Virus record (IMG/VR): IMGVR_UViG_3300009788_000006
Coordinates: 18,022 to 82,021 of that record
From: a virus
Direction: 5' to 3' (one strand)
DNA: 64,000 nucleotides
Shown here: positions 10,076 to 61,241 of the stretch, in pieces
How positions within the stretch are numbered: position 1 is the stretch's first letter
How the letters are laid out: every line of letters starts with the position of its first letter
Notes under the pieces: model-generated
Told to the model about the DNA's origin: nothing
Databases searched by the model: none
Seen by the model: the letters and a program-made list of their open reading frames with translations, nothing else
Translations under genes and position numbers: made by a program

Positions 10076-10393
10076 TTACTTGTGGCGCGCCGCGGTGGTC
10101 ATCGGCAACCGGAGCCCGACTCCCTTGCGCTTGTTCCAGATGGCTTTGGCCGCTCCACCGAGGTGCTCAATCGCCTTGTGTAGCGCGGCAGCGAACGCGC
10201 CAAGGAAAAGCGCCAGAGCCGGCGTCACGTTGTCGGCGCCGACCTGGACAAGCATCCAGTTCGCGACCAGCCCGAGCAACGGGAGCACGACGGGAACCAT
10301 CAGCGCTTTTGGGACTTTGCCGACGGCCCAGATCATGATCCAGGCGAGCACGGTGGTCAGACCGGGGATCAGTAACAGATTGACCTGTTCCAT
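10076..10393 (-). CDS. Three-TM membrane protein, holin candidate
   Basis: Three hydrophobic segments and a basic C-terminus; GAGGTG RBS. Confidence 0.6.
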   Translation of the reverse strand: MEQVNLLLIPGLTTVLAWIMIWAVGKVPKALMVPVVLPLLGLVANWMLVQVGADNVTPALALFLGAFAAALHKAIEHLGGAAKAIWNKRKGVGLRLPMTTAARHK

Positions 10394-10399
10394 TTTTTC

Positions 10400-10980
10400 A
10401 CCTCAGAAGGTTAAAGCGGCTCCGGTCCACCAGCACGCCCCCGACACAACGCCGAGAGCTTCGCGGTCCATCTGAATCCAGAGCCGTCAACCAGGAGCCG
10501 GAGGAGGAACCCGCTACGACCAAGCGAGACACAACCGATGCGGATACTCCGGCCCCTGGTTCAGGGCTCGGCAATTGCAGGGAGTAGAGCCGCCAGCTGC
10601 AAGCCGGGGCGACAGGCGCCAGCCGTCGCACCATCCGACTGAGCCGGGAAGGTCTCCGGCTTGCAGCTCATGGCTCTGGTCTCGAATCTCTCGCAGCCCC
10701 CGAGGGACTTATGCACGGAATCGCCAGCTAACCTTAGACCAGCCGTTACCGATCTACTCTTCGCTGAACACGCCCCTCGATTCCCCACCATGCTAACCGG
10801 GGCGGCCGGCTTCTCAACCGTGCCGGGGCCTGCCAAAGATTCGAGAATCCGGCTTCTCGAGGACTTCATGACAGCGACCCCTGGCTCAGCCAGGATTATG
10901 CGATCGGCCACGCCGACGTTACTCGCCATTCGTCCGGTCAAGATTGAGCTTTTGCTCCGGGGCCGGTCTCCGGAATTCCA
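10400..10980 (-). ncRNA. Candidate large structured RNA (family unknown)
   Basis: 13-bp perfect helix 10595-10607/10656-10668; 14-bp helix 10490-10503/10547-10560; G-U wobbles favour minus; no credible protein. Confidence 0.6.
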
Positions 10981-10982
10981 GA

Positions 10983-11159
10983 CTATCGAAACGCCCCGAG
11001 AGGCGTGAAATCCTCCCACCGGTTCCGGTACGGGCTGTTCGGCGGATAGTCGCCGCTGATCTTTCGCGCATAGGCCGATCTGCGACCAGGGGCGCTCATC
11101 GCGCGCTCCTTGGCGGCCTTCCGTTTTGCTCTTTCCTTCAAACGTTTCTCGCTCTTCAT
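10983..11159 (-). CDS. 58-aa Lys/Arg-rich peptide (not in ORF track)
   Basis: MKSEKRLKERAKRKAAKERAMSAPGRRSAYARKISGDYPPNSPYRNRWEDFTPLGAFR; RBS CCAAGGGAGACAGC. Confidence 0.7.
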   Translation of the reverse strand: MKSEKRLKERAKRKAAKERAMSAPGRRSAYARKISGDYPPNSPYRNRWEDFTPLGAFR

Positions 11160-11174
11160 GCTGTCTCCCTTGGG

Positions 11175-11567
11175 GATTGCCGGCCCGTGCTACCGTAGCG
11201 GGCCAGCGGTGGGTCGGTTGGGAAGGAGTCACGCCCCTGGTAGCTCGGAGCGGTGAGAAGGCGAGGCCAGGCCCTTGGGGTCGCGCCTGGAAAACTACCA
11301 GGTCTCGGCGGGTCAACGAAACCGCGTGCAAGCCGCAGCAGCGAGGCACCGGATCGATCACTATGGGTAGCTCGCCGAGGTTGGGCTCGCACACTATCGC
11401 CGATGCTTGCGTCGACGATATGCCGGTCGCCCTTTCGCTTGGCGTTGCCGCCAGGCGCGCGCCCAAAGGCCCGCTATTTAGCTGGCGCTCCAGGAGGCCG
11501 CCGCCAACCCTCTCGACCGGAACGGCTGAGAGAGCACATTGCCGACGGCGGTCTGCTGCAACGTCAG
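11175..11567 (-). ncRNA. Candidate structured RNA, tandem copy 2
   Basis: Starts CTGACGTTGCAGCAGACCGCCG and pairs with GCGGCGGCCTCCTGGAGCGCCA; homologous to copy 1; 3' end approximate. Confidence 0.6.
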
Positions 11568-11918
11568 AATAGTGACGGGATTGCACCGCCCCGCGGTCTC
11601 TCACCGCTTGGCCTGGGTTACGACCAGTCCCACGGACACCTCCATCTACGTGCCGCGCGGATAAGGCGCCGTCAGCCCCGCGCGTACGCCGACCATTGCT
11701 CCACCAGGGCGATTTGCCGCTGTCGGTCCTGGTTTCATCGCCTTCACAACGGGCCGCCAGCCTACCGGAGCTTACGCTTGATCGGTGGTCTCCTCCGGCT
11801 CTACCACTCAGCAATGCCAGGCTGTACGGCGACCCTTTCACGCAATGACGCTCCACGCGACCGCCGCTGGCAGGGAGGCTTTTCCCATGCAATCCGCGGC
11901 GGTCGCGTGCAACGTCAG
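11568..11918 (-). ncRNA. Candidate structured RNA, tandem copy 1
   Basis: ~22-bp 5' helix (11846-11917, 14 bp perfect), nested helices and a 3' T-arm-like hairpin GGCGG-TGCAATC-CCGTC. Confidence 0.65.
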
Positions 11919-12129
11919 TCATGCCGCCGCCCAATCGATTGGATTCGTGCGGGCTGGTGTGTAGGCTCCAGTCTAGCGACCCCTCGCTCCCACAGGGAAC
12001 GTCGCAAGCCTCCCAGTCAGCCTCGGGGCTTTCGAAGGTACAAGTCTTGCCGAGGTCCGGCGGTGACCCATCAAGTGCCGCTATTCCGTCGACGCGAATC
12101 ACGGCCGCTACGTGTGTCCAGATACTCAC
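11919..12129 (-). pseudogene. N-terminal fragment of a conserved phage protein (MSIWTHVAA...PCGSEGSL)
   Basis: Protein-like for ~65 aa, then the frame runs into the RNA region with non-protein-like composition. Confidence 0.45.
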
Positions 12130-12467
12130 GGGTCAACTTCTTCATCTGGTTCTGGGGCAGGCCCGAGAACACTGACTCGGTCGCCGGGCTTCAGCACGCA
12201 CTCAGGGCATGGAATCAACGTATCGAATTGGCGATCCGGATCCCGGACGATGAATAAGAAACCGCACTGAGGACACTTCTTCTTTCTTGTGGGCCGCTGC
12301 GGGAATTCGGCGCGCGTCTCCCACCCCAGATCCGCAATCACGAGCCCCCGGACGTAGGCCGAGAACGTCATCTCTCTGACCCGGGCCTCTCTCTGTGCAT
12401 TGCGCAGAATACCGCTCGGCATACTGACGCTGGTCTTGACCGCGGGTCCGTTGGGGTTCGTCGCCAT
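12126..12467 (-). CDS. Ribbon-helix-helix protein with C-terminal zinc ribbon
   Basis: KTSVSMP...MTFSAYVRGLV plus CPQC...CPEC. Confidence 0.7.
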   Translation of the reverse strand: MATNPNGPAVKTSVSMPSGILRNAQREARVREMTFSAYVRGLVIADLGWETRAEFPQRPTRKKKCPQCGFLFIVRDPDRQFDTLIPCPECVLKPGDRVSVLGPAPEPDEEVDP

Positions 12468-14187: not shown

Positions 14188-14263
14188 GCTCCGATAGCTC
14201 AGCCGGAAGAGCGGCTGCCTCGTAAGCAGCGGGTCGGCGGTTCGAATCCGTCTCGGAGCTCCA
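14188..14263 (+). tRNA. tRNA-Thr(CGT)
   Basis: GCTCCGA/TCGGAGC acceptor, GCTGC-CTCGTAA-GCAGC anticodon arm, TTCGAAT T-loop, encoded CCA. Confidence 0.95.
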
Positions 14264-19065: not shown

Positions 19066-19458
19066 TCACCCCGACGGACAAGCCAGGTCCCTGAGATCGC
19101 CCAGCAGCACTTCGCCGAAGCCGACCAGATCCTCGTCCTCCGGGGTCGTCCCCCAATACCAGAACACCTGATCCGGATCACACTCGGCGGTCCCGTCCAT
19201 GACCTGGAGCGCGAAGCCTAGGAGCTCGACCTCTCGCCGGGTCTTCATGCGGTCGTCATCGCGGCGGATGGCGATGAGCTGCTCCAGCCTATTCCGGTCC
19301 GGGACTTCGCCGCTATCGGCACCGCGGGCGCCGGCCAGGTCGAAGGGCTCCGTGTTGGCCGTCCAGGCGAAGCCCAGCATTTCACCGACGGCGTCCGTCC
19401 AGCGGCGGAGTAGGACGATGCGGCGCTGGCCGCATCCGGGGGTAAGCGAGGTGGTCAT
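19066..19458 (-). CDS. Hypothetical protein
   Basis: 130-aa ORF with GGAG RBS. Confidence 0.6.
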   Translation of the reverse strand: MTTSLTPGCGQRRIVLLRRWTDAVGEMLGFAWTANTEPFDLAGARGADSGEVPDRNRLEQLIAIRRDDDRMKTRREVELLGFALQVMDGTAECDPDQVFWYWGTTPEDEDLVGFGEVLLGDLRDLACPSG

Positions 19459-20794: not shown

Positions 20795-20892
20795 TCGTGG
20801 CCCTTATTCTCGCCTACCAAGACTCGAAGCATGGCTGCCGGCGGTTTCGGGTGAGTTGTCAAAGGGTTCTTTCTCGGTCGCCTATTAGAACT

Positions 20893-20908
20893 TGCAAACC
20901 CTATGCCA
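20893..20908 (-). promoter_or_regulatory. sigma54 (RpoN) -24/-12 promoter
   Basis: TGGCAT-AGGGT-TTGCA. Confidence 0.65.
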
Positions 20909-21014
20909 GAATTATGAACACAGCCCCATGAAAGGTTGGTGGGCCTTAAACGTAAGCATGTCACCACTTACGCCGAATGCCGCCGGGCCAGAGGCCCGGG
21001 CCGCTGACCCGGAA

Positions 21015-21053
21015 TGTCCAGAATTCCGTACATTGTATCCACAATTCTGGACA
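21015..21053. promoter_or_regulatory. Dyad operator or possible upstream activator site
   Basis: TGTCCAGAATT-N17-AATTCTGGACA. Confidence 0.55.
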
Positions 21054-21082
21054 CGGGCCGATAAGCGCTTACGGGTCAACAC

Positions 21083-21316
21083 TTACGAGCCCTTGATTTG
21101 TTCAGAATTCTGGATCAGAGGTGAGTCGAGCGCGCGGAGTAGGTTGAGCACGGCCACGGCCGATCCGAGGTTGTCGCCCTGCTCCCAGGCCCACAGCCTG
21201 GTGCGGACGATGTCCAGGTCAACGGCAGCGGCCTTAGAGCTGCGCCCCGTCGCTTGTCGTAGGCTGCGGATGTGGGCGCCGAGGTCCTTGGGAGTGATGT
21301 CGTGGTGTGTTTTCAT
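21083..21316 (-). CDS. XRE-family HTH regulator
   Basis: LGAHIRSLRQATGRSSKAAAVDLDIVRTRLWAWEQG. Confidence 0.8.
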   Translation of the reverse strand: MKTHHDITPKDLGAHIRSLRQATGRSSKAAAVDLDIVRTRLWAWEQGDNLGSAVAVLNLLRALDSPLIQNSEQIKGS

Positions 21317-40861: not shown

Positions 40862-41130
40862 AGAGCATCCGAGACATCCTCCGGCCGGCCGCCTTGGCCG
40901 AACTCAACCGCGACGGTCGCCGGCATCGTCTCGCCCGCATCTGGCGCGAGTACCACGGCCTCACCAACGAGGAGGCCGCAGCGATCTGCGGCGTGGAGCC
41001 CTACAGCTTCAGCCGCTTTGGGACCCACCGACAGCGACCGGAAGCGGGGCGGCTGGTGGCCAAGGGGATCGGGCTCGACAGCAGCACCCGGCCGTGGAAG
41101 GCGGCGGTCGCTGGCACCATCCTAGCGTAG
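40858..41130 (+). CDS. XRE-like HTH protein
   Basis: WREYHGLTNEEAAAICGVEPYSFSRF. Confidence 0.7.
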   Translation: MKSIRDILRPAALAELNRDGRRHRLARIWREYHGLTNEEAAAICGVEPYSFSRFGTHRQRPEAGRLVAKGIGLDSSTRPWKAAVAGTILA

Positions 41131-41186
41131 CTCAGACGGCAGAGCGCTCGGAGAGGTCGCGGGTTCGAGCCCCGCCGGACCTACCA
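41121..41186 (+). ncRNA. tRNA-like element lacking the anticodon arm (pseudo-tRNA or mimic)
   Basis: TA-GCTC-AGACGGCA-GAGC D arm, CTC-GGA-GAG mini-hairpin, GCGGG-TTCGAGC-CCCGC T arm, ACCA; acceptor stem mostly unpaired. Confidence 0.7.
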
Positions 41187-42494: not shown

Positions 42495-42571
42495 TGGTGG
42501 CCCCGGCGGGATTCGAACCCGCAATAACCGGATTTTGAGGCCGGCGCCTTTTCCGTTTAGACCACGGAGCC
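42495..42571 (-). tRNA. tRNA with CAA anticodon (Leu), short variable loop
   Basis: GGCTCCG/CGGGGCC acceptor, CCGGC-CTCAAAA-TCCGG, TTATT variable loop, ACCA. Confidence 0.85.
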
Positions 42572-42573
42572 AT

Positions 42574-42661
42574 TGGTGCCAGGGGTAGGATTCGAACCTA
42601 CGATGGGATCTTTCGAGACCGGATTTACAGTCCGGCGCTTTCACCGCTCGGCCACCCTGGC
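42574..42661 (-). tRNA. tRNA-Tyr(GTA)
   Basis: GCCAGGG/CCCTGGC, CCGGA-CTGTAAA-TCCGG, long variable arm, ACCA. Confidence 0.95.
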
Positions 42662-42667
42662 TGAAGT

Positions 42668-42742
42668 TGGTAGACCCCTTCGGATTCGAACCGAAAATCT
42701 TCAGATCCTAAATCTGACCGTTGCCATTTAGCCTAGAGGTCC
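42668..42742 (-). tRNA. tRNA with TAG anticodon (Leu), short variable loop, weak D stem
   Basis: GGACCTC/GGGGTCT (G1-U72), TCAGA-TTTAGGA-TCTGA, TTCGG-TTCGAAT-CCGAA, ACCA. Confidence 0.8.
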
Positions 42743-52017: not shown

Positions 52018-53094
52018 GTGAGTAGCTGTAATACCGCATGCGCGAAGATCAGGAAGACGAAGAGCGGGGAGCTGCGCCACGCCTATGCCCTGCTGGCCGC
52101 AGCGAATCCGGAGCTCAAGGACGATACCGCCCTCAGAGTCAGGCTCTGGCGTCAAGCGGGCTTCGGTGGTGAATCGAATGACGAGAGCGTCCGCCGGGCA
52201 TCGCTTGCCGCGCTGAAGAAGCCGGCGCTGATGACGGTGATCCAGCACCACCGGCCGGACATGCTTCGAGCTCAGGACCCAGAGCCAATAGAGCAGCCAC
52301 CAGAGAGTCCGGAGAACCAGGAGTACCGCAGTGGCCTAGCTCGTGAGCTGATTCACCGCCTCGACGAGATCAAAGGGCTCAGCACCTTGGTCAATACCGG
52401 CAACCCCGAGGCGGATGGCAAGCAGACGAAGAAGAACCGAGCGAAGATGAATGTCCTCGCCGCGGGCTATATGGAGTGGACTCGCGAGAAGCTCCCCCCG
52501 GCCCTCGAAGGTGATCAAGGGCTATGTGGCCCGCCGTGCTTCGGTCTCAGTGAGAGGAAATTCGATATCCACTTGCTGCTCCTGGCCAGGGTCTCGGCTA
52601 CGGAGGCATACGCACGGACCGCCAACGGCAGCAGCCCGTCCCGGTCGACGTGCCAGAAGAAGGGTCCGGAGATCGCCAAAGGGGACGATGTCCAGGCGGC
52701 GATTACGTGGCACCGGCAACTACGCACCGGAGCCGTGTTGTCGAAGGCCGCGAAGCTTGAAGAGAAATACTGGTCCTACATGGATGACTCGAGGCCCGAG
52801 GCGACGCGGGATCGGATCGCCGCCGGCAAGGAGATCGCCAACCTGAACGGGCTCAATGCCCCCGAGCGCATCCAGCTCGATCAGATCAGCTGGCTATCCG
52901 ATGTCCTTCGCAACGCTGCCAAGACCGCCGACTTCGTCCAGGCCAACGGTAGCCCATCTGCCGCCGAGGTCGAAGAGCTCCACGGCATCCTGCGCGCTGT
53001 CGGCGCCCATGTCCGCGCCCAGAGCGGCTTGCCTGCGGAGCTCGGGCAGAAGGTGATTGAGCTTACGGTCGAGACCTCTTCCAGCGACGCCTGA
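52018..53094 (+). CDS. Probable terminase small subunit
   Basis: ATEAYART...DVQAAI...DRIAAGKEIANLNGLNAPERI; located upstream of TerL. Confidence 0.6.
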   Translation: MSSCNTACAKIRKTKSGELRHAYALLAAANPELKDDTALRVRLWRQAGFGGESNDESVRRASLAALKKPALMTVIQHHRPDMLRAQDPEPIEQPPESPENQEYRSGLARELIHRLDEIKGLSTLVNTGNPEADGKQTKKNRAKMNVLAAGYMEWTREKLPPALEGDQGLCGPPCFGLSERKFDIHLLLLARVSATEAYARTANGSSPSRSTCQKKGPEIAKGDDVQAAITWHRQLRTGAVLSKAAKLEEKYWSYMDDSRPEATRDRIAAGKEIANLNGLNAPERIQLDQISWLSDVLRNAAKTADFVQANGSPSAAEVEELHGILRAVGAHVRAQSGLPAELGQKVIELTVETSSSDA

Positions 53095-53189
53095 AAAAAC
53101 CGAAGGCCCGGGGCTTGCCCGGGCCTCGGGAGTCGTATAGACTCTCAGGTACCATGCTGATAAGGAAATCCTATCCTACAGCCGGACCG

Positions 53190-53654
53190 ATGTCTAGTCG
53201 GTCCGTACCGCCGGACCCGATCGAGACAATCCGTTGCGGCCTGCACTGCGCCATTAGCGAGTATGACGGCTGCGAGCGGCTGCCGGACGAGCTCAAGGAC
53301 GCGGTTGCGGCCCTCGATCAGATCCACCAAGGCCGGGGAGCGATCCCGCGGGGCCTGAGCGTTGAAGAGATCCAAGAAGAGCTGGCCCGCCGGGCAGAGG
53401 TGATTCTCGAAAAGATCACCCCGGCTGTGCAAGTCTGTCAGCCTGAGCTCGAACAGATGCTCAACCAAAGCCTCGGTGAATTGGAGTCCTTTGAGGACTG
53501 GATCTCAGAACGTCTCGAAGCCAAAACCGAGCGTATCGGGGAGCCGCAAGGCTCGAGCGGCCAGGCGGTGGCCGATGGAGCTACGAGAGACATAGAGGGG
53601 CCGTCAGACCCAGACGGCAAGCAGGAAGCGGAAACCCTGGCAACGGGCGAGTAG
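53190..53654 (+). CDS. Hypothetical protein
   Basis: Shares ALDQIxQGRGA motif with 14774-15319; start uncertain. Confidence 0.6.
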   Translation: MSSRSVPPDPIETIRCGLHCAISEYDGCERLPDELKDAVAALDQIHQGRGAIPRGLSVEEIQEELARRAEVILEKITPAVQVCQPELEQMLNQSLGELESFEDWISERLEAKTERIGEPQGSSGQAVADGATRDIEGPSDPDGKQEAETLATGE

Positions 53655-59221: not shown

Positions 59222-60583
59222 ATGCCATTCTGGAAAAACCTCGACGCCGCCACCGCAGAATACAAAGCTGGCTCTGCGTATGTTCCCCGTACTACATTCT
59301 TAGGTGTTGGGGAGAAAACCGTCCTCAAGGGAGATCTAGGCGACGGCAAGAAGGCGATCAAGGAAGGTTATCTAGGATCGACCTGGGTCTATCGGTGCGT
59401 CCGCCGGAAGCAGGACATGGTGGCGAAGCTCCGCTGGATGGTCCGGACCTACGCCGCCGACGGCACGTTCACCGACGATTTCGAGCACGCTGCCGGCATG
59501 AAGATCAACCACATGGGGCTCGCTCTCCCTTCGTGGCACAACATGCACCGGGCAACCGGTTTCCTGTCCGTCACCGGGAACTCGATCTTCGGGCTCTTCG
59601 GTCCCGGGATCAGCAGCGATGGAGCATCCTTTGACCCGGTGGAATTCAGGGAATCCCCGCGCTCCGAGATGCGTACAGAGTCGCCTGTCGGGGTCGACCC
59701 CATCGAAGATGATAGCGGCGGGGTCCTAGAGTACAAGCTCAACCCACCTCGCGGGCCGGCCGGGAGGATTAAATCGTGGTCTCCCGAGACGATTTTGCAT
59801 GTGATGCTCCCGAGCTTGTCCGACACGGGCCTCTGGGGGCAGTCTGAGCTGGAGGCCTTGGCGCTGGCGGTCGACACCGACGCCGCCGGCCATCAGTGGA
59901 ACCTCGACAGCTACGGCGCTGGCGGCATGCCTGCCTGGATGATGGTCGACTACTCGCTGGCAGAGGGCAGCGTCAAGAAAGCCCGCGCCGACCTCGAAGA
60001 CCGATTCAGGAGTCGTGGCCGGTCGCGCATCCCTTGGCTGGTCGGTGGCCAGCGCGACCAGAGCGGGAAGCCGGACATCGAGCTCCACAAGCTTGGCGCC
60101 GATGCGCAGGAAATGGACTGGCTCAACGGCCTGGGCTTGGCTCGCGATGAGATCGTCGGTGGGTTGGGCTTCCACCCCGCATCGTTCTCGAAGGAACACA
60201 CGACGCGCGACAACGCCCGCCAGGCCAACCGGCAAGCCTGGGAGCAAGGCGCATTCCCGTTGATCGAGGCGTTCTCGGCCTGGTTCTCGATGAAGCTCCT
60301 CACGCCCGAGGAGCGGCTTTCGGGCATGGTCATCGTCCCGGATATCCGGGGCGTCCGCGAGCTCCAGGAGGATGCCGCGATCGTCGCCACGGCGTTCTCG
60401 AATCTCGTCGGCCCGAACAAGCTCAGCCCGGCCGACGGTGCGAAGGTCACTGGCTTGACGCTCGACACGGACGAACACCCGGAGTATGAAGAGCCGCTCC
60501 GGACGCTGAATGCGAAGCCGCTTGCTGATCCGGGCGGCGGCCCGCCCCCGATCCCAGACGAGGAGGGTACGGCAGGTGGCTGA
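59222..60583 (+). CDS. Portal protein (HK97-like)
   Basis: STWVYRCV, TGNS, ETILH, GQSELEAL, EMDWL...RDEIVGGLG. Confidence 0.85.
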   Translation: MPFWKNLDAATAEYKAGSAYVPRTTFLGVGEKTVLKGDLGDGKKAIKEGYLGSTWVYRCVRRKQDMVAKLRWMVRTYAADGTFTDDFEHAAGMKINHMGLALPSWHNMHRATGFLSVTGNSIFGLFGPGISSDGASFDPVEFRESPRSEMRTESPVGVDPIEDDSGGVLEYKLNPPRGPAGRIKSWSPETILHVMLPSLSDTGLWGQSELEALALAVDTDAAGHQWNLDSYGAGGMPAWMMVDYSLAEGSVKKARADLEDRFRSRGRSRIPWLVGGQRDQSGKPDIELHKLGADAQEMDWLNGLGLARDEIVGGLGFHPASFSKEHTTRDNARQANRQAWEQGAFPLIEAFSAWFSMKLLTPEERLSGMVIVPDIRGVRELQEDAAIVATAFSNLVGPNKLSPADGAKVTGLTLDTDEHPEYEEPLRTLNAKPLADPGGGPPPIPDEEGTAGG

Positions 60584-60691
60584 AACCGACTGCACGGCGC
60601 GGGTCTTCGTCGCGCGGTGTCTTCGGACGATATCAACGCCAGAGTCCACCATTCCGACGTCCGTGAAATTCTTCACCGCAGGGGAAAAGCC

Positions 60692-60910
60692 ATGACAACA
60701 AGCAATGCCGAAGCCGCGTCGATGACGGTCGGCCTGTTGATTCTGGCGAAGTCCAGGCCGCGGATTCTGAGCCGCCAGCTCTTCCGCCTTCTGGCGGTCG
60801 CCGTAGAGAAGGAGATGCCCGGCAGCGTCAAGCTCGACCCGAAGAGGATCGAGTGGCCCGAGGGCGCCGCCACCTACTGCGCGCAGCCTCTCCCAGAATG
60901 GACGATGTAG
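60692..60910 (+). CDS. Hypothetical protein
   Basis: AGGGGA RBS. Confidence 0.5.
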   Translation: MTTSNAEAASMTVGLLILAKSRPRILSRQLFRLLAVAVEKEMPGSVKLDPKRIEWPEGAATYCAQPLPEWTM

Positions 60911-60923
60911 AGAAGGAGATGAG

Positions 60924-61241
60924 GTGAAGGTCAAGCCATGGCAGCCCGTCTTCCTTGACGAAGCAGACCGGAAGCCGGCTGGATGGATGACGGGTTATGT
61001 TGATTCGCGGGCCAGTTCCTTCTATTGGCACAAACAAGAGTCGGCCGATATTGGAATTCTTCGGCGGGGTCAAGATCCGGCTCCGTTGCCGGCCGCAAAG
61101 TCTATGCTCAGAACCACGAGATACCACAGCACCGGCGAGGCGGTTCGCCCGGTGGATTGCTGGATAGCCGCCAAGGGCGTGCCGGACGACGCCAGATTCT
61201 ACAGGCCCAGCGGGTCGAGGAGGATCTATGGGCGGTGTTAA
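60924..61241 (+). CDS. Hypothetical protein
   Basis: AAGGAG/GAGG RBS. Confidence 0.5.
   Translation: MKVKPWQPVFLDEADRKPAGWMTGYVDSRASSFYWHKQESADIGILRRGQDPAPLPAAKSMLRTTRYHSTGEAVRPVDCWIAAKGVPDDARFYRPSGSRRIYGRC

Follow-up and report, generated by a model that had tools for sequence, protein, structure and literature searches.

A stop-free, palindrome-rich tail on a conserved small phage gene that may act as nucleic acid

The region at positions 11175-11918 of a 64,000-nucleotide stretch of phage DNA (bases 18022-82021 of the IMG/VR virus record IMGVR_UViG_3300009788_000006; hereafter the window, to which all coordinates refer) lies within a long minus-strand operon. It had been described in an initial annotation, made from the sequence alone, as a tandem pair of homologous structured RNAs of 350-400 nt. 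Here we report that the region is part of a 522-codon open reading frame (ORF), ORF522, whose beginning encodes the N-terminal half of a common small phage protein and whose long remainder has no relatives and is rich in palindromes. Two signals coexist in ORF522, a frame that stays open from a conserved start and strong structure on the sense strand, and neither looks accidental. We tentatively propose, giving the idea somewhat less than even weight, that ORF522 is a gene that has been remodelled, with a tail that functions as nucleic acid and stays open so that ribosomes can pass. The parts of ORF522 are as follows.

10561-12129, minus strand: ORF522, 522 codons with a GTG start and no stop
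11932-12129, minus strand: conserved N-terminal half (about residues 1-66), belonging to a family of ~135-aa phage proteins (MSxWTHV...CxVPCGSEGSL)
10561-11931, minus strand: orphan tail of ORF522 (~455 codons, ~1.37 kb), stop-free and palindrome-rich

The GTG start of ORF522 shares bases with the TGA stop of the 113-aa ORF that lies upstream (GTGA). When stop codons were counted over 10400-12130, the ORF522 frame had 0, the other minus frames had 23 and 27, and the plus frames had 7, 5 and 16. About 25 stops would be expected in the ORF522 frame, or 11.6 from its own position-specific composition, compared to the 0 observed. A plus-strand gene was rejected because no plus frame scores as coding. 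The shadow of an antisense gene was rejected as well: the in-register plus frame carries 16 stops and no plus frame scores as coding, so ORF522 is no antisense shadow of the kind that G+C-rich genes usually cast. The length that shadow ORFs can reach in a G+C-rich phage is illustrated by a 402-aa ORF at 59726-60934 on the minus strand, which is antisense to the portal gene and in register with it and which served as a calibration for ORF522. At codon position 1, all four segments of ORF522 have a G fraction of 0.38-0.43 and a T fraction of 0.13-0.16 (0.40 and 0.14 overall). Coding potential was scored in nats per 150 nt with a 3-periodic Markov model trained on 65 ORFs of the phage. The window means were ~-3 for the ORF522 frame compared to ~-8 and ~-9.5 for the other two minus frames, with reference scores of +6.1 +/- 4.4 for true genes (5th percentile -2.3) and -8.6 +/- 3.9 for the best wrong frame. 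The ORF522 frame is therefore intermediate, being clearly favoured among the frames yet not a normal gene. No Pfam domain was found in ORF522.

In an exhaustive phmmer search of 1.84 billion representative proteins, ORF522 matched 81 other proteins, mostly of 100-190 aa, and every one of them aligned with residues 2 to ~88 only, at up to 64% identity. A family hidden Markov model (HMM) built from these matches recognised residues 3-65 of ORF522 (E 2.1e-27) and matched nowhere else when all six frames of the 82-kb genome were searched, the next-best E being 6.9. Profile alignment with hhalign (probability 99.8) paired profile columns 1-83 with ORF522 residues 1-80, the last ~15 columns with low confidence, and then stopped. 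The N-terminal half of ORF522 retains every invariant residue of the family, including W4, R12, D14 and the C-x-VP-x-GSEGS motif. The C-terminal half of the family, with its (I/V)(W/F)GDLRD and IRxG motifs, occurs nowhere in the 82-kb genome, and homology in ORF522 ends just ahead of the first copy of a repeated box (box 1, below). ORF522 thus resembles the MSxWTHV...GDLRD family in residues 1-66 and differs from it in being without the GDLRD and IRxG half and in its length of 522 aa compared to ~125-176 aa.

The consensus of the family is MSxWTHV..IRxD..LGxTCxF..W..CxVPCGSEGSL..IWGDLRDY..IRxG..VE. We tallied 81 representatives (at 50% identity), 45 IMG/VR loci and 126 metagenome stretches (loci L033-L158). 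The second-half motif is nearly constant among them. GDLR was found by eye in 45 of 45 IMG/VR loci, whose proteins are 124-157 aa long apart from one of 227 aa, and 75 of 80 metagenome loci match GD[LIVM]R, four others reading ADLR or GNLR and one running off its contig. Among the representatives, 73 of 81 carry the motif and seven of the other eight have a one-residue variant; the last, the 83-aa P0063, keeps only LDLRG. P0063 ends in ...YGLDLRGPARLRRRR and resembles another G+C-rich copy with a disrupted second half. The family was not found in Pfam or PHROGs and is almost absent from GTDB genomes, with one distant member in an Anaerolineae metagenome-assembled genome. The genes neighbouring ORF522 are common to no family locus. 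In the window itself, the family's GDLRD string also occurs at the end (...LLGDLRDLACPSG) of an otherwise unrelated 130-aa protein encoded at 19066-19458 on the minus strand, probably by chance.

The remainder of ORF522 gave a very different result. For residues 70-522, no homologue was found among 5.8 billion clustered proteins (word-based search), the 1.84 billion representatives (phmmer) or a metagenome collection. The word-based search matched ORF522 itself only, in a 90% cluster of three members; the representative P0003 is 100% identical to ORF522 and P0004 is identical over its length. The amino-acid composition of the tail is close to that of a random translation of the local bases, with Tyr depleted and Glu, Asp and Val slightly raised. 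The ESM Atlas model of the tail has a predicted local distance difference test score (pLDDT) of 0.20 and a predicted template modelling score (pTM) of 0.11, and the Atlas gave no usable feature match. The tail does not look like protein, and the 522-aa 'protein' present in several public collections is mostly not protein in the usual sense.

What sets the tail apart is its folding. Four of the eight long inverted repeats of the 82-kb genome, including the strongest, lie within the 1.45 kb of 10481-11917, and this region is the densest inverted-repeat cluster of the genome. In a genome-wide scan for excess folding with 300-nt windows, the minus-strand windows at 10480, 10630 and 11380 ranked 1st, 3rd and 7th, and the plus strand was unremarkable there. 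Further strong windows in the same scan lie on the minus strand at 52930-53230 and 20830-21280 (z = -3.2 and -3.0). Compared to dinucleotide shuffles, 10394-10990 had z values of -4.45 (minus strand) and -2.29 (plus strand), and 11160-12130 had a z of -3.64 on the minus strand. Eight 400-nt sense windows gave z values of -3.71, -3.75, -2.05, -0.83, -2.57, -0.81, -3.19 and -4.18, compared to -0.40 +/- 0.87 (minimum -2.36) for 15 control sense-strand windows in confident genes. With z-scores of -3.1 to -4.45, the minus (sense) strand is exceptionally structured. Besides the two related hairpins treated below, its main elements are the following.

11270-11471, minus strand: domain closed by a 21-bp long-range helix (arms 11270-11290 and 11451-11471, 86% complementary)
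10680-10846, minus strand: domain closed by a 23-bp helix (arms 10680-10702 and 10824-10846, 87% complementary)
10586-10677, minus strand: hairpin C, 22-nt arms with a perfect 13-bp core
10481-10569, minus strand: hairpin D, 23-nt arms, spanning the ORF522 stop codon

The domain at 11270-11471 encloses three predicted hairpins and is seen in both the minimum-energy and the centroid folds. A third domain, closed by a helix of ~16 bp, was read from the fold.

The repeat on which the initial annotation was built is present. On the minus strand, the box CTGACGTTGCA-NNN-GACCGCCG starts at 11918 and at 11567, a spacing of 351 nt, and 28 or 42 nt downstream of each box lies its inverted partner, at 11846-11867 (anti-box 1) and 11483-11503 (anti-box 2). 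Two hairpins with 22-24-bp stems are thus formed, 351 nt apart, and a further copy of the box lies far downstream.

11897-11918, minus strand: box 1, 5' arm of hairpin A
11845-11918, minus strand: hairpin A, 22-nt arms, 91% complementary; the highest-scoring inverted repeat of the 82-kb genome
11546-11567, minus strand: box 2, 5' arm of hairpin B
11482-11568, minus strand: hairpin B, arms as in hairpin A with four mismatches, and a different and longer loop
233-253, minus strand: third exact box copy, ~11.7 kb downstream, inside a 741-aa ORF (38-2263) in a different frame

A degenerate 21-mer had six matches at no more than three mismatches compared to 0.98 expected, and 0 of 100 shuffles reached six; a stricter box had three exact matches compared to 0.00 expected. 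The 21-22-nt box repeat and its inverted partners are therefore genuine, and the hairpins that they form are related to each other and not due to chance. The 22 stem positions of hairpin A comprise 21 pairs, one of them U.G, and one G.G mismatch. Hairpin B retains the U.G and the G.G and adds one C.C and two A.C mismatches. The covariation claimed for the variable triplets holds for two of the three pairs, which are compensatory (C-G to G-C and C-G to A-U), whereas the middle pair is broken in copy 2 (C.C). The statement that the wobbles are G-U on the minus strand is half true, as the two A.C mismatches of hairpin B on the minus strand would be G.U on the plus strand. A T-arm-like hairpin, GGCGG-TGCAATC-CCGTC, had also been pointed out; this hairpin is present at 11574-11590 on the minus strand, but it is not seen as a separate hairpin in the minimum-energy fold and ARAGORN called no tRNA at the site.

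A covariance model of the hairpins scored 98.9 bits on hairpin B and 89.3 bits on hairpin A, both of which were used for training. Its best match outside the training pair is a weak one to hairpin D (10475-10574, 17.9 bits, rough E 0.015). The element shared by hairpins A and B, from box to anti-box, is ~75-86 nt long and occurs twice in frame, 351 nt being 117 codons. The third box copy stands without an inverted partner, and its surroundings show no local structure (z = +0.58). Counted by hand, anti-box 2 pairs with this third box at 18 of 21 positions compared to 17 of 21 with box 2. Because one copy sits in a different gene and in a different frame, the box is a nucleic-acid motif rather than a peptide motif. 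The box codons T-D-V-A-R-D-R-R align weakly, with low confidence, with the family motif I-W-G-D-L-R-D, and on this basis the box may have arisen from within the gene. The hairpins are not flanked by target-site duplications.

Similarity between the two proposed RNA units does not extend beyond these hairpins. With the hairpins removed, 447 of 500 shuffles gave a local alignment score at least as high as the real one, and the global z-score was 0.71; the translated units were dissimilar too (z = 0.9). Since their similarity outside the shared hairpins does not exceed that of shuffled sequence, the units are not tandem homologous RNAs. The GAAAGGG through which both were said to enter a second helix lies 82 nt from box 1 and 131 nt from box 2, in different predicted contexts. 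The RNAalifold consensus of the two units, based on n=2, was poor (-52 kcal/mol compared to -174 and -189 for the single folds), and MAFFT misaligned the 3' arms. The suggestion of an undescribed RNA family agrees with the exceptional minus-strand folding and with the Rfam result that follows, but against it stand the non-homologous units, the stop-free frame, its conserved protein start and its overlap with the stop codon of the gene upstream, and the single genome. As the folded part had no homologue in any collection, an 'RNA family' would rest on one genome.

To look for known RNA classes and nucleic-acid relatives, we compared the window with the 4227 families of Rfam. No family matched the region, whether GOLLD, ROOL, OLE, HEARO, RNase P, tmRNA, riboswitches or ribozymes. 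At gathering thresholds, the 64-kb window contained five tRNA matches only, and at E up to 10 in three sub-windows the best scores in the region were 19-20 bits compared to gathering scores of 48-79 bits. A suspected resemblance to a P3-P4 segment of group I introns was not borne out. blastn found no match among GenBank phages. The box pattern had 30 single matches in IMG/VR, about the chance number by a rough estimate, and none of them had the inverted partner. The hairpin covariance model had 0 matches in the 100 of 125 family loci that it covered (L133-L157 and L158 lay outside the search).

We propose the following arrangement. ORF522 would be a remodelled copy of a common small phage gene, with only the first ~66 codons still recognisable and the family's C-terminal half replaced by ~1.37 kb of orphan, palindrome-rich sequence. 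Ribosomes probably run through ORF522, arriving from the upstream gene via the GTGA overlap. The tail stems of at least 20 bp would then be double-stranded RNA elements that act in cis in the operon transcript, and candidate roles for them are RNase III-type processing or stability sites, ribosome-pausing sites, or sites of box/anti-box pairing. The stop-free frame would let ribosomes translate 1.5 kb of structured RNA and so avoid Rho-dependent polarity on the downstream genes, with the amino-acid sequence of the tail barely constrained. A larger claim along the same lines, which we regard as unlikely, is that the tail is a large ornate RNA (~0.6-1.7 kb) of an unseen kind that overwrote the 3' half of the gene and yet was kept as an open frame. 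Such an RNA would consist of three domains, each closed by a helix of ~16-23 bp, together with four hairpins of at least 20 bp, and would be structured, functional and read by ribosomes at once. It may work with a Lys/Arg-rich peptide encoded by an ORF that overlaps ORF522, or via box/anti-box pairing with the distant box.

10983-11159, minus strand: 58-aa Lys/Arg-rich ORF, a candidate gene in a frame different from that of the overlapping ORF522

Several observations weigh against a remodelled gene with a tail kept open for ribosomes. In most windows, the tail scores lower as coding sequence than the 5th percentile of true genes (-2.3). The ORF522 stop lies 167 nt ahead of the next gene, and because of this gap ORF522 is not coupled to it. 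The overlapping 58-aa ORF, with its good ribosome-binding site, fits a rival gene model. Both A.C mismatches of hairpin B are synonymous third-position changes in the ORF522 frame (GGT to GGC and CGT to CGC), which hints that the frame outweighs pairing at those positions. Highly structured RNA with more G than C is already a poor Rho substrate, so the anti-polarity argument is not compelling alone. The RNase III role is a guess from stem length alone, and the proposal as a whole is drawn from the sequence of one genome, the tail being a singleton in all collections searched.

Several alternatives were weighed. The region could hold one or more independent large non-coding RNAs with the small basic 58-aa peptide between them, the open frame being irrelevant. 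Sense-strand folding with z down to -4.45 and weaker folding on the plus strand, three domains closed by long helices (21, 23 and ~16 bp), four long hairpins and a sequence unlike protein are all consistent with this, and without an Rfam match such an RNA would be new if real. The 58-aa ORF also suits it, as it has AAGGGAGA plus 4 nt ahead of its ATG and falls where the region is least folded (z = -2.05 and -0.83 in windows 10800 and 11000). We nevertheless consider independent non-coding RNAs improbable. A run of ~455 codons with 0 stops, exactly in the frame of the conserved N-terminal domain, is very unlikely under this explanation, ribosomes starting at 12129 would traverse the RNA, a promoter and terminator scan found no promoter-like or terminator-like sites bracketing the region or its blocks, and the units are not homologous to each other and have homologues nowhere. 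[quoted passage not shown] The low-confidence alignment of the box with the GDLRD codons suggests copying from the gene into two direct and two inverted copies; the random-like composition of the tail and its singleton status in every collection searched also fit, and in-frame palindromic insertions are documented for Rickettsia RPEs (PMC10969869). Against this, the hairpins lack flanking target-site duplications and amount to just two full copies and one half copy, phage genomes rarely retain 1.4 kb of junk, and the excess folding is strand-specific. Moreover, all invariant N-terminal residues are kept, which argues against a decaying pseudogene unless the event was very recent. We judge a by-product doubtful, to about the same degree as independent RNAs.

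Two further explanations place the function elsewhere. The lambda origin lies inside gene O, and by analogy the boxes and hairpins could be a DNA-level element within an ORF that binds protein and functions as an origin of replication, as a site of single-strand priming or as a site of recombination. The sequence specificity of the 21-nt box, which has three direct and two inverted copies, fits this, as do the inverted-repeat cluster, the densest in the genome, and the DnaB-like helicase and DnaD-like loader among the phage's proteins. However, no GC-skew switch and no AT-rich unwinding stretch were found at the locus, the replication genes are 11 kb distant, the arrangement of the boxes is unlike that of iterons, and the stronger minus-strand folding points to RNA or to one single strand. 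These findings make a DNA-level element quite improbable. Finally, homology to the family stops abruptly beside its best-conserved motif, a typical homing site, and highly structured RNA comes next, as would be expected if a self-splicing intron or mobile ribozyme of unknown class interrupted the gene ahead of that motif. No second exon was found by tblastn with the 81 family proteins, by reading three frames by eye or by a six-frame search of the 82-kb genome with the family HMM (next-best E 6.9); hhalign of the family against the 58-aa ORF (probability 0.1) gave no second exon either. The missing second exon largely refutes an intron. No group I or group II intron model of Rfam matched 421- and 451-nt windows at E up to 10, and the open frame continues for 455 codons. 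An intron is thus the least probable of these explanations by our estimate and very improbable in itself. An intein was rejected as well, since no Hint/splicing or other Pfam domain is present and the family sequence, which would be the C-extein, never resumes.

We compared ORF522 with known systems that share one or more of its features. RPEs are hairpin-forming palindromic DNA elements that lie in frame inside protein genes and are translated with the host ORF (PMC10969869). ORF522 resembles Rickettsia RPEs and intragenic MITEs in having two copies of one palindromic element, 117 codons apart and in frame, whose 22-nt terminal inverted repeats form hairpins. In contrast, RPEs are ~150 bp long, occur in dozens of copies, encode a peptide that is conserved and are flanked on either side by intact host protein, whereas ORF522 has three boxes, of which two have partners, that is, two copies and a lone half copy, with no visible target-site duplication. 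The host protein also never resumes in ORF522 and is followed instead by 1.4 kb of further unrelated hairpins.

Stem-loops are also common landmarks of phage early transcripts. RNase III hairpins are found in T7 (R0.3-R1.3) and lambda (the N leader and sib), and the known sites are intergenic. The stems of ORF522 are similar to these in being stem-loops of ~20 bp or more with internal mismatches, spaced by a few hundred nt on the sense strand of an early operon, but they lie inside an open frame and the resemblance is one of stem length only. In the RNA immunity systems of P4 (CI RNA with seqA and seqC) and P1 (c4 RNA), direct and complementary copies of ~20 nt are present and a processed RNA pairs with distant copies. 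The pairing of anti-box 2 with the distant third box, at least as good as with its own partner, gives a likeness of layout only, and no terminator or target gene logic was found at ORF522. GOLLD and ROOL, large ornate RNAs, occur in phages and prophages (PMC12286853). They are conserved, covarying families and are not known to be open reading frames. Like them, the tail would be a large, multi-domain, strongly folded RNA in phage DNA without a known protein partner; unlike them, it is a singleton in a stop-free frame with no Rfam match.

The genome around ORF522 is that of a phage of 82,021 bp with a terminal repeat of 123 bp and a G+C content of 62.5%. Its structural genes (terminase, portal) are on the plus strand, and the long minus-strand operon encodes the DnaB-like helicase, the DnaD-like loader and a further helicase. 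ORF522 is flanked by the following genes.

12126-12467, minus strand: 113-aa ORF, upstream neighbour of ORF522
10076-10393, minus strand: 105-aa ORF, downstream neighbour of ORF522, strongly coding

IMG/VR contained no close relatives of the flanking 113-aa protein or of the DnaB-like helicase. No RNA sequencing run is listed as containing the stretch, and one DNA run, from a subsurface metagenome that may be the source sample, contains it. The contigs of that run had no usable variation; one 284-nt contig of depth 3 with a 494-nt skip showed low likeness and is probably from another organism. The usual ribosome-binding site of the phage is AAGGAGA, and at 12 of its 20 occurrences an ORF of at least 40 aa follows. 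The leader CCAAGGGAGACA before the 58-aa ORF has one further occurrence in the genome, ahead of a 51-aa ORF at ~40400 on the minus strand. The tRNA genes comprise a cluster at 42495-42742 on the minus strand (Leu-CAA, Tyr-GTA and Leu-TAG) and a separate tRNA-Thr(CGT) at 14188-14263 on the plus strand; a weak tRNA-like Rfam match at 41124-41183 on the plus strand (30.4 bits) was not called by ARAGORN.

For annotation, the case is a caution, as a 522-aa database 'protein' is mostly not a usual protein and the 'tandem homologous RNAs' are not homologous. A further outcome is a widespread family of small phage proteins (MSxWTHV...GSEGS...GDLRD), which neither Pfam nor PHROGs contains. Should selection act on both the open frame and the folding of the ORF522 tail, one 1.4-kb sequence would be constrained as RNA structure and for translatability, but not as protein. 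If true, this would bear on how phages tolerate long structured inserts in their operons and on the origin of new coding sequence or RNA from an old gene.

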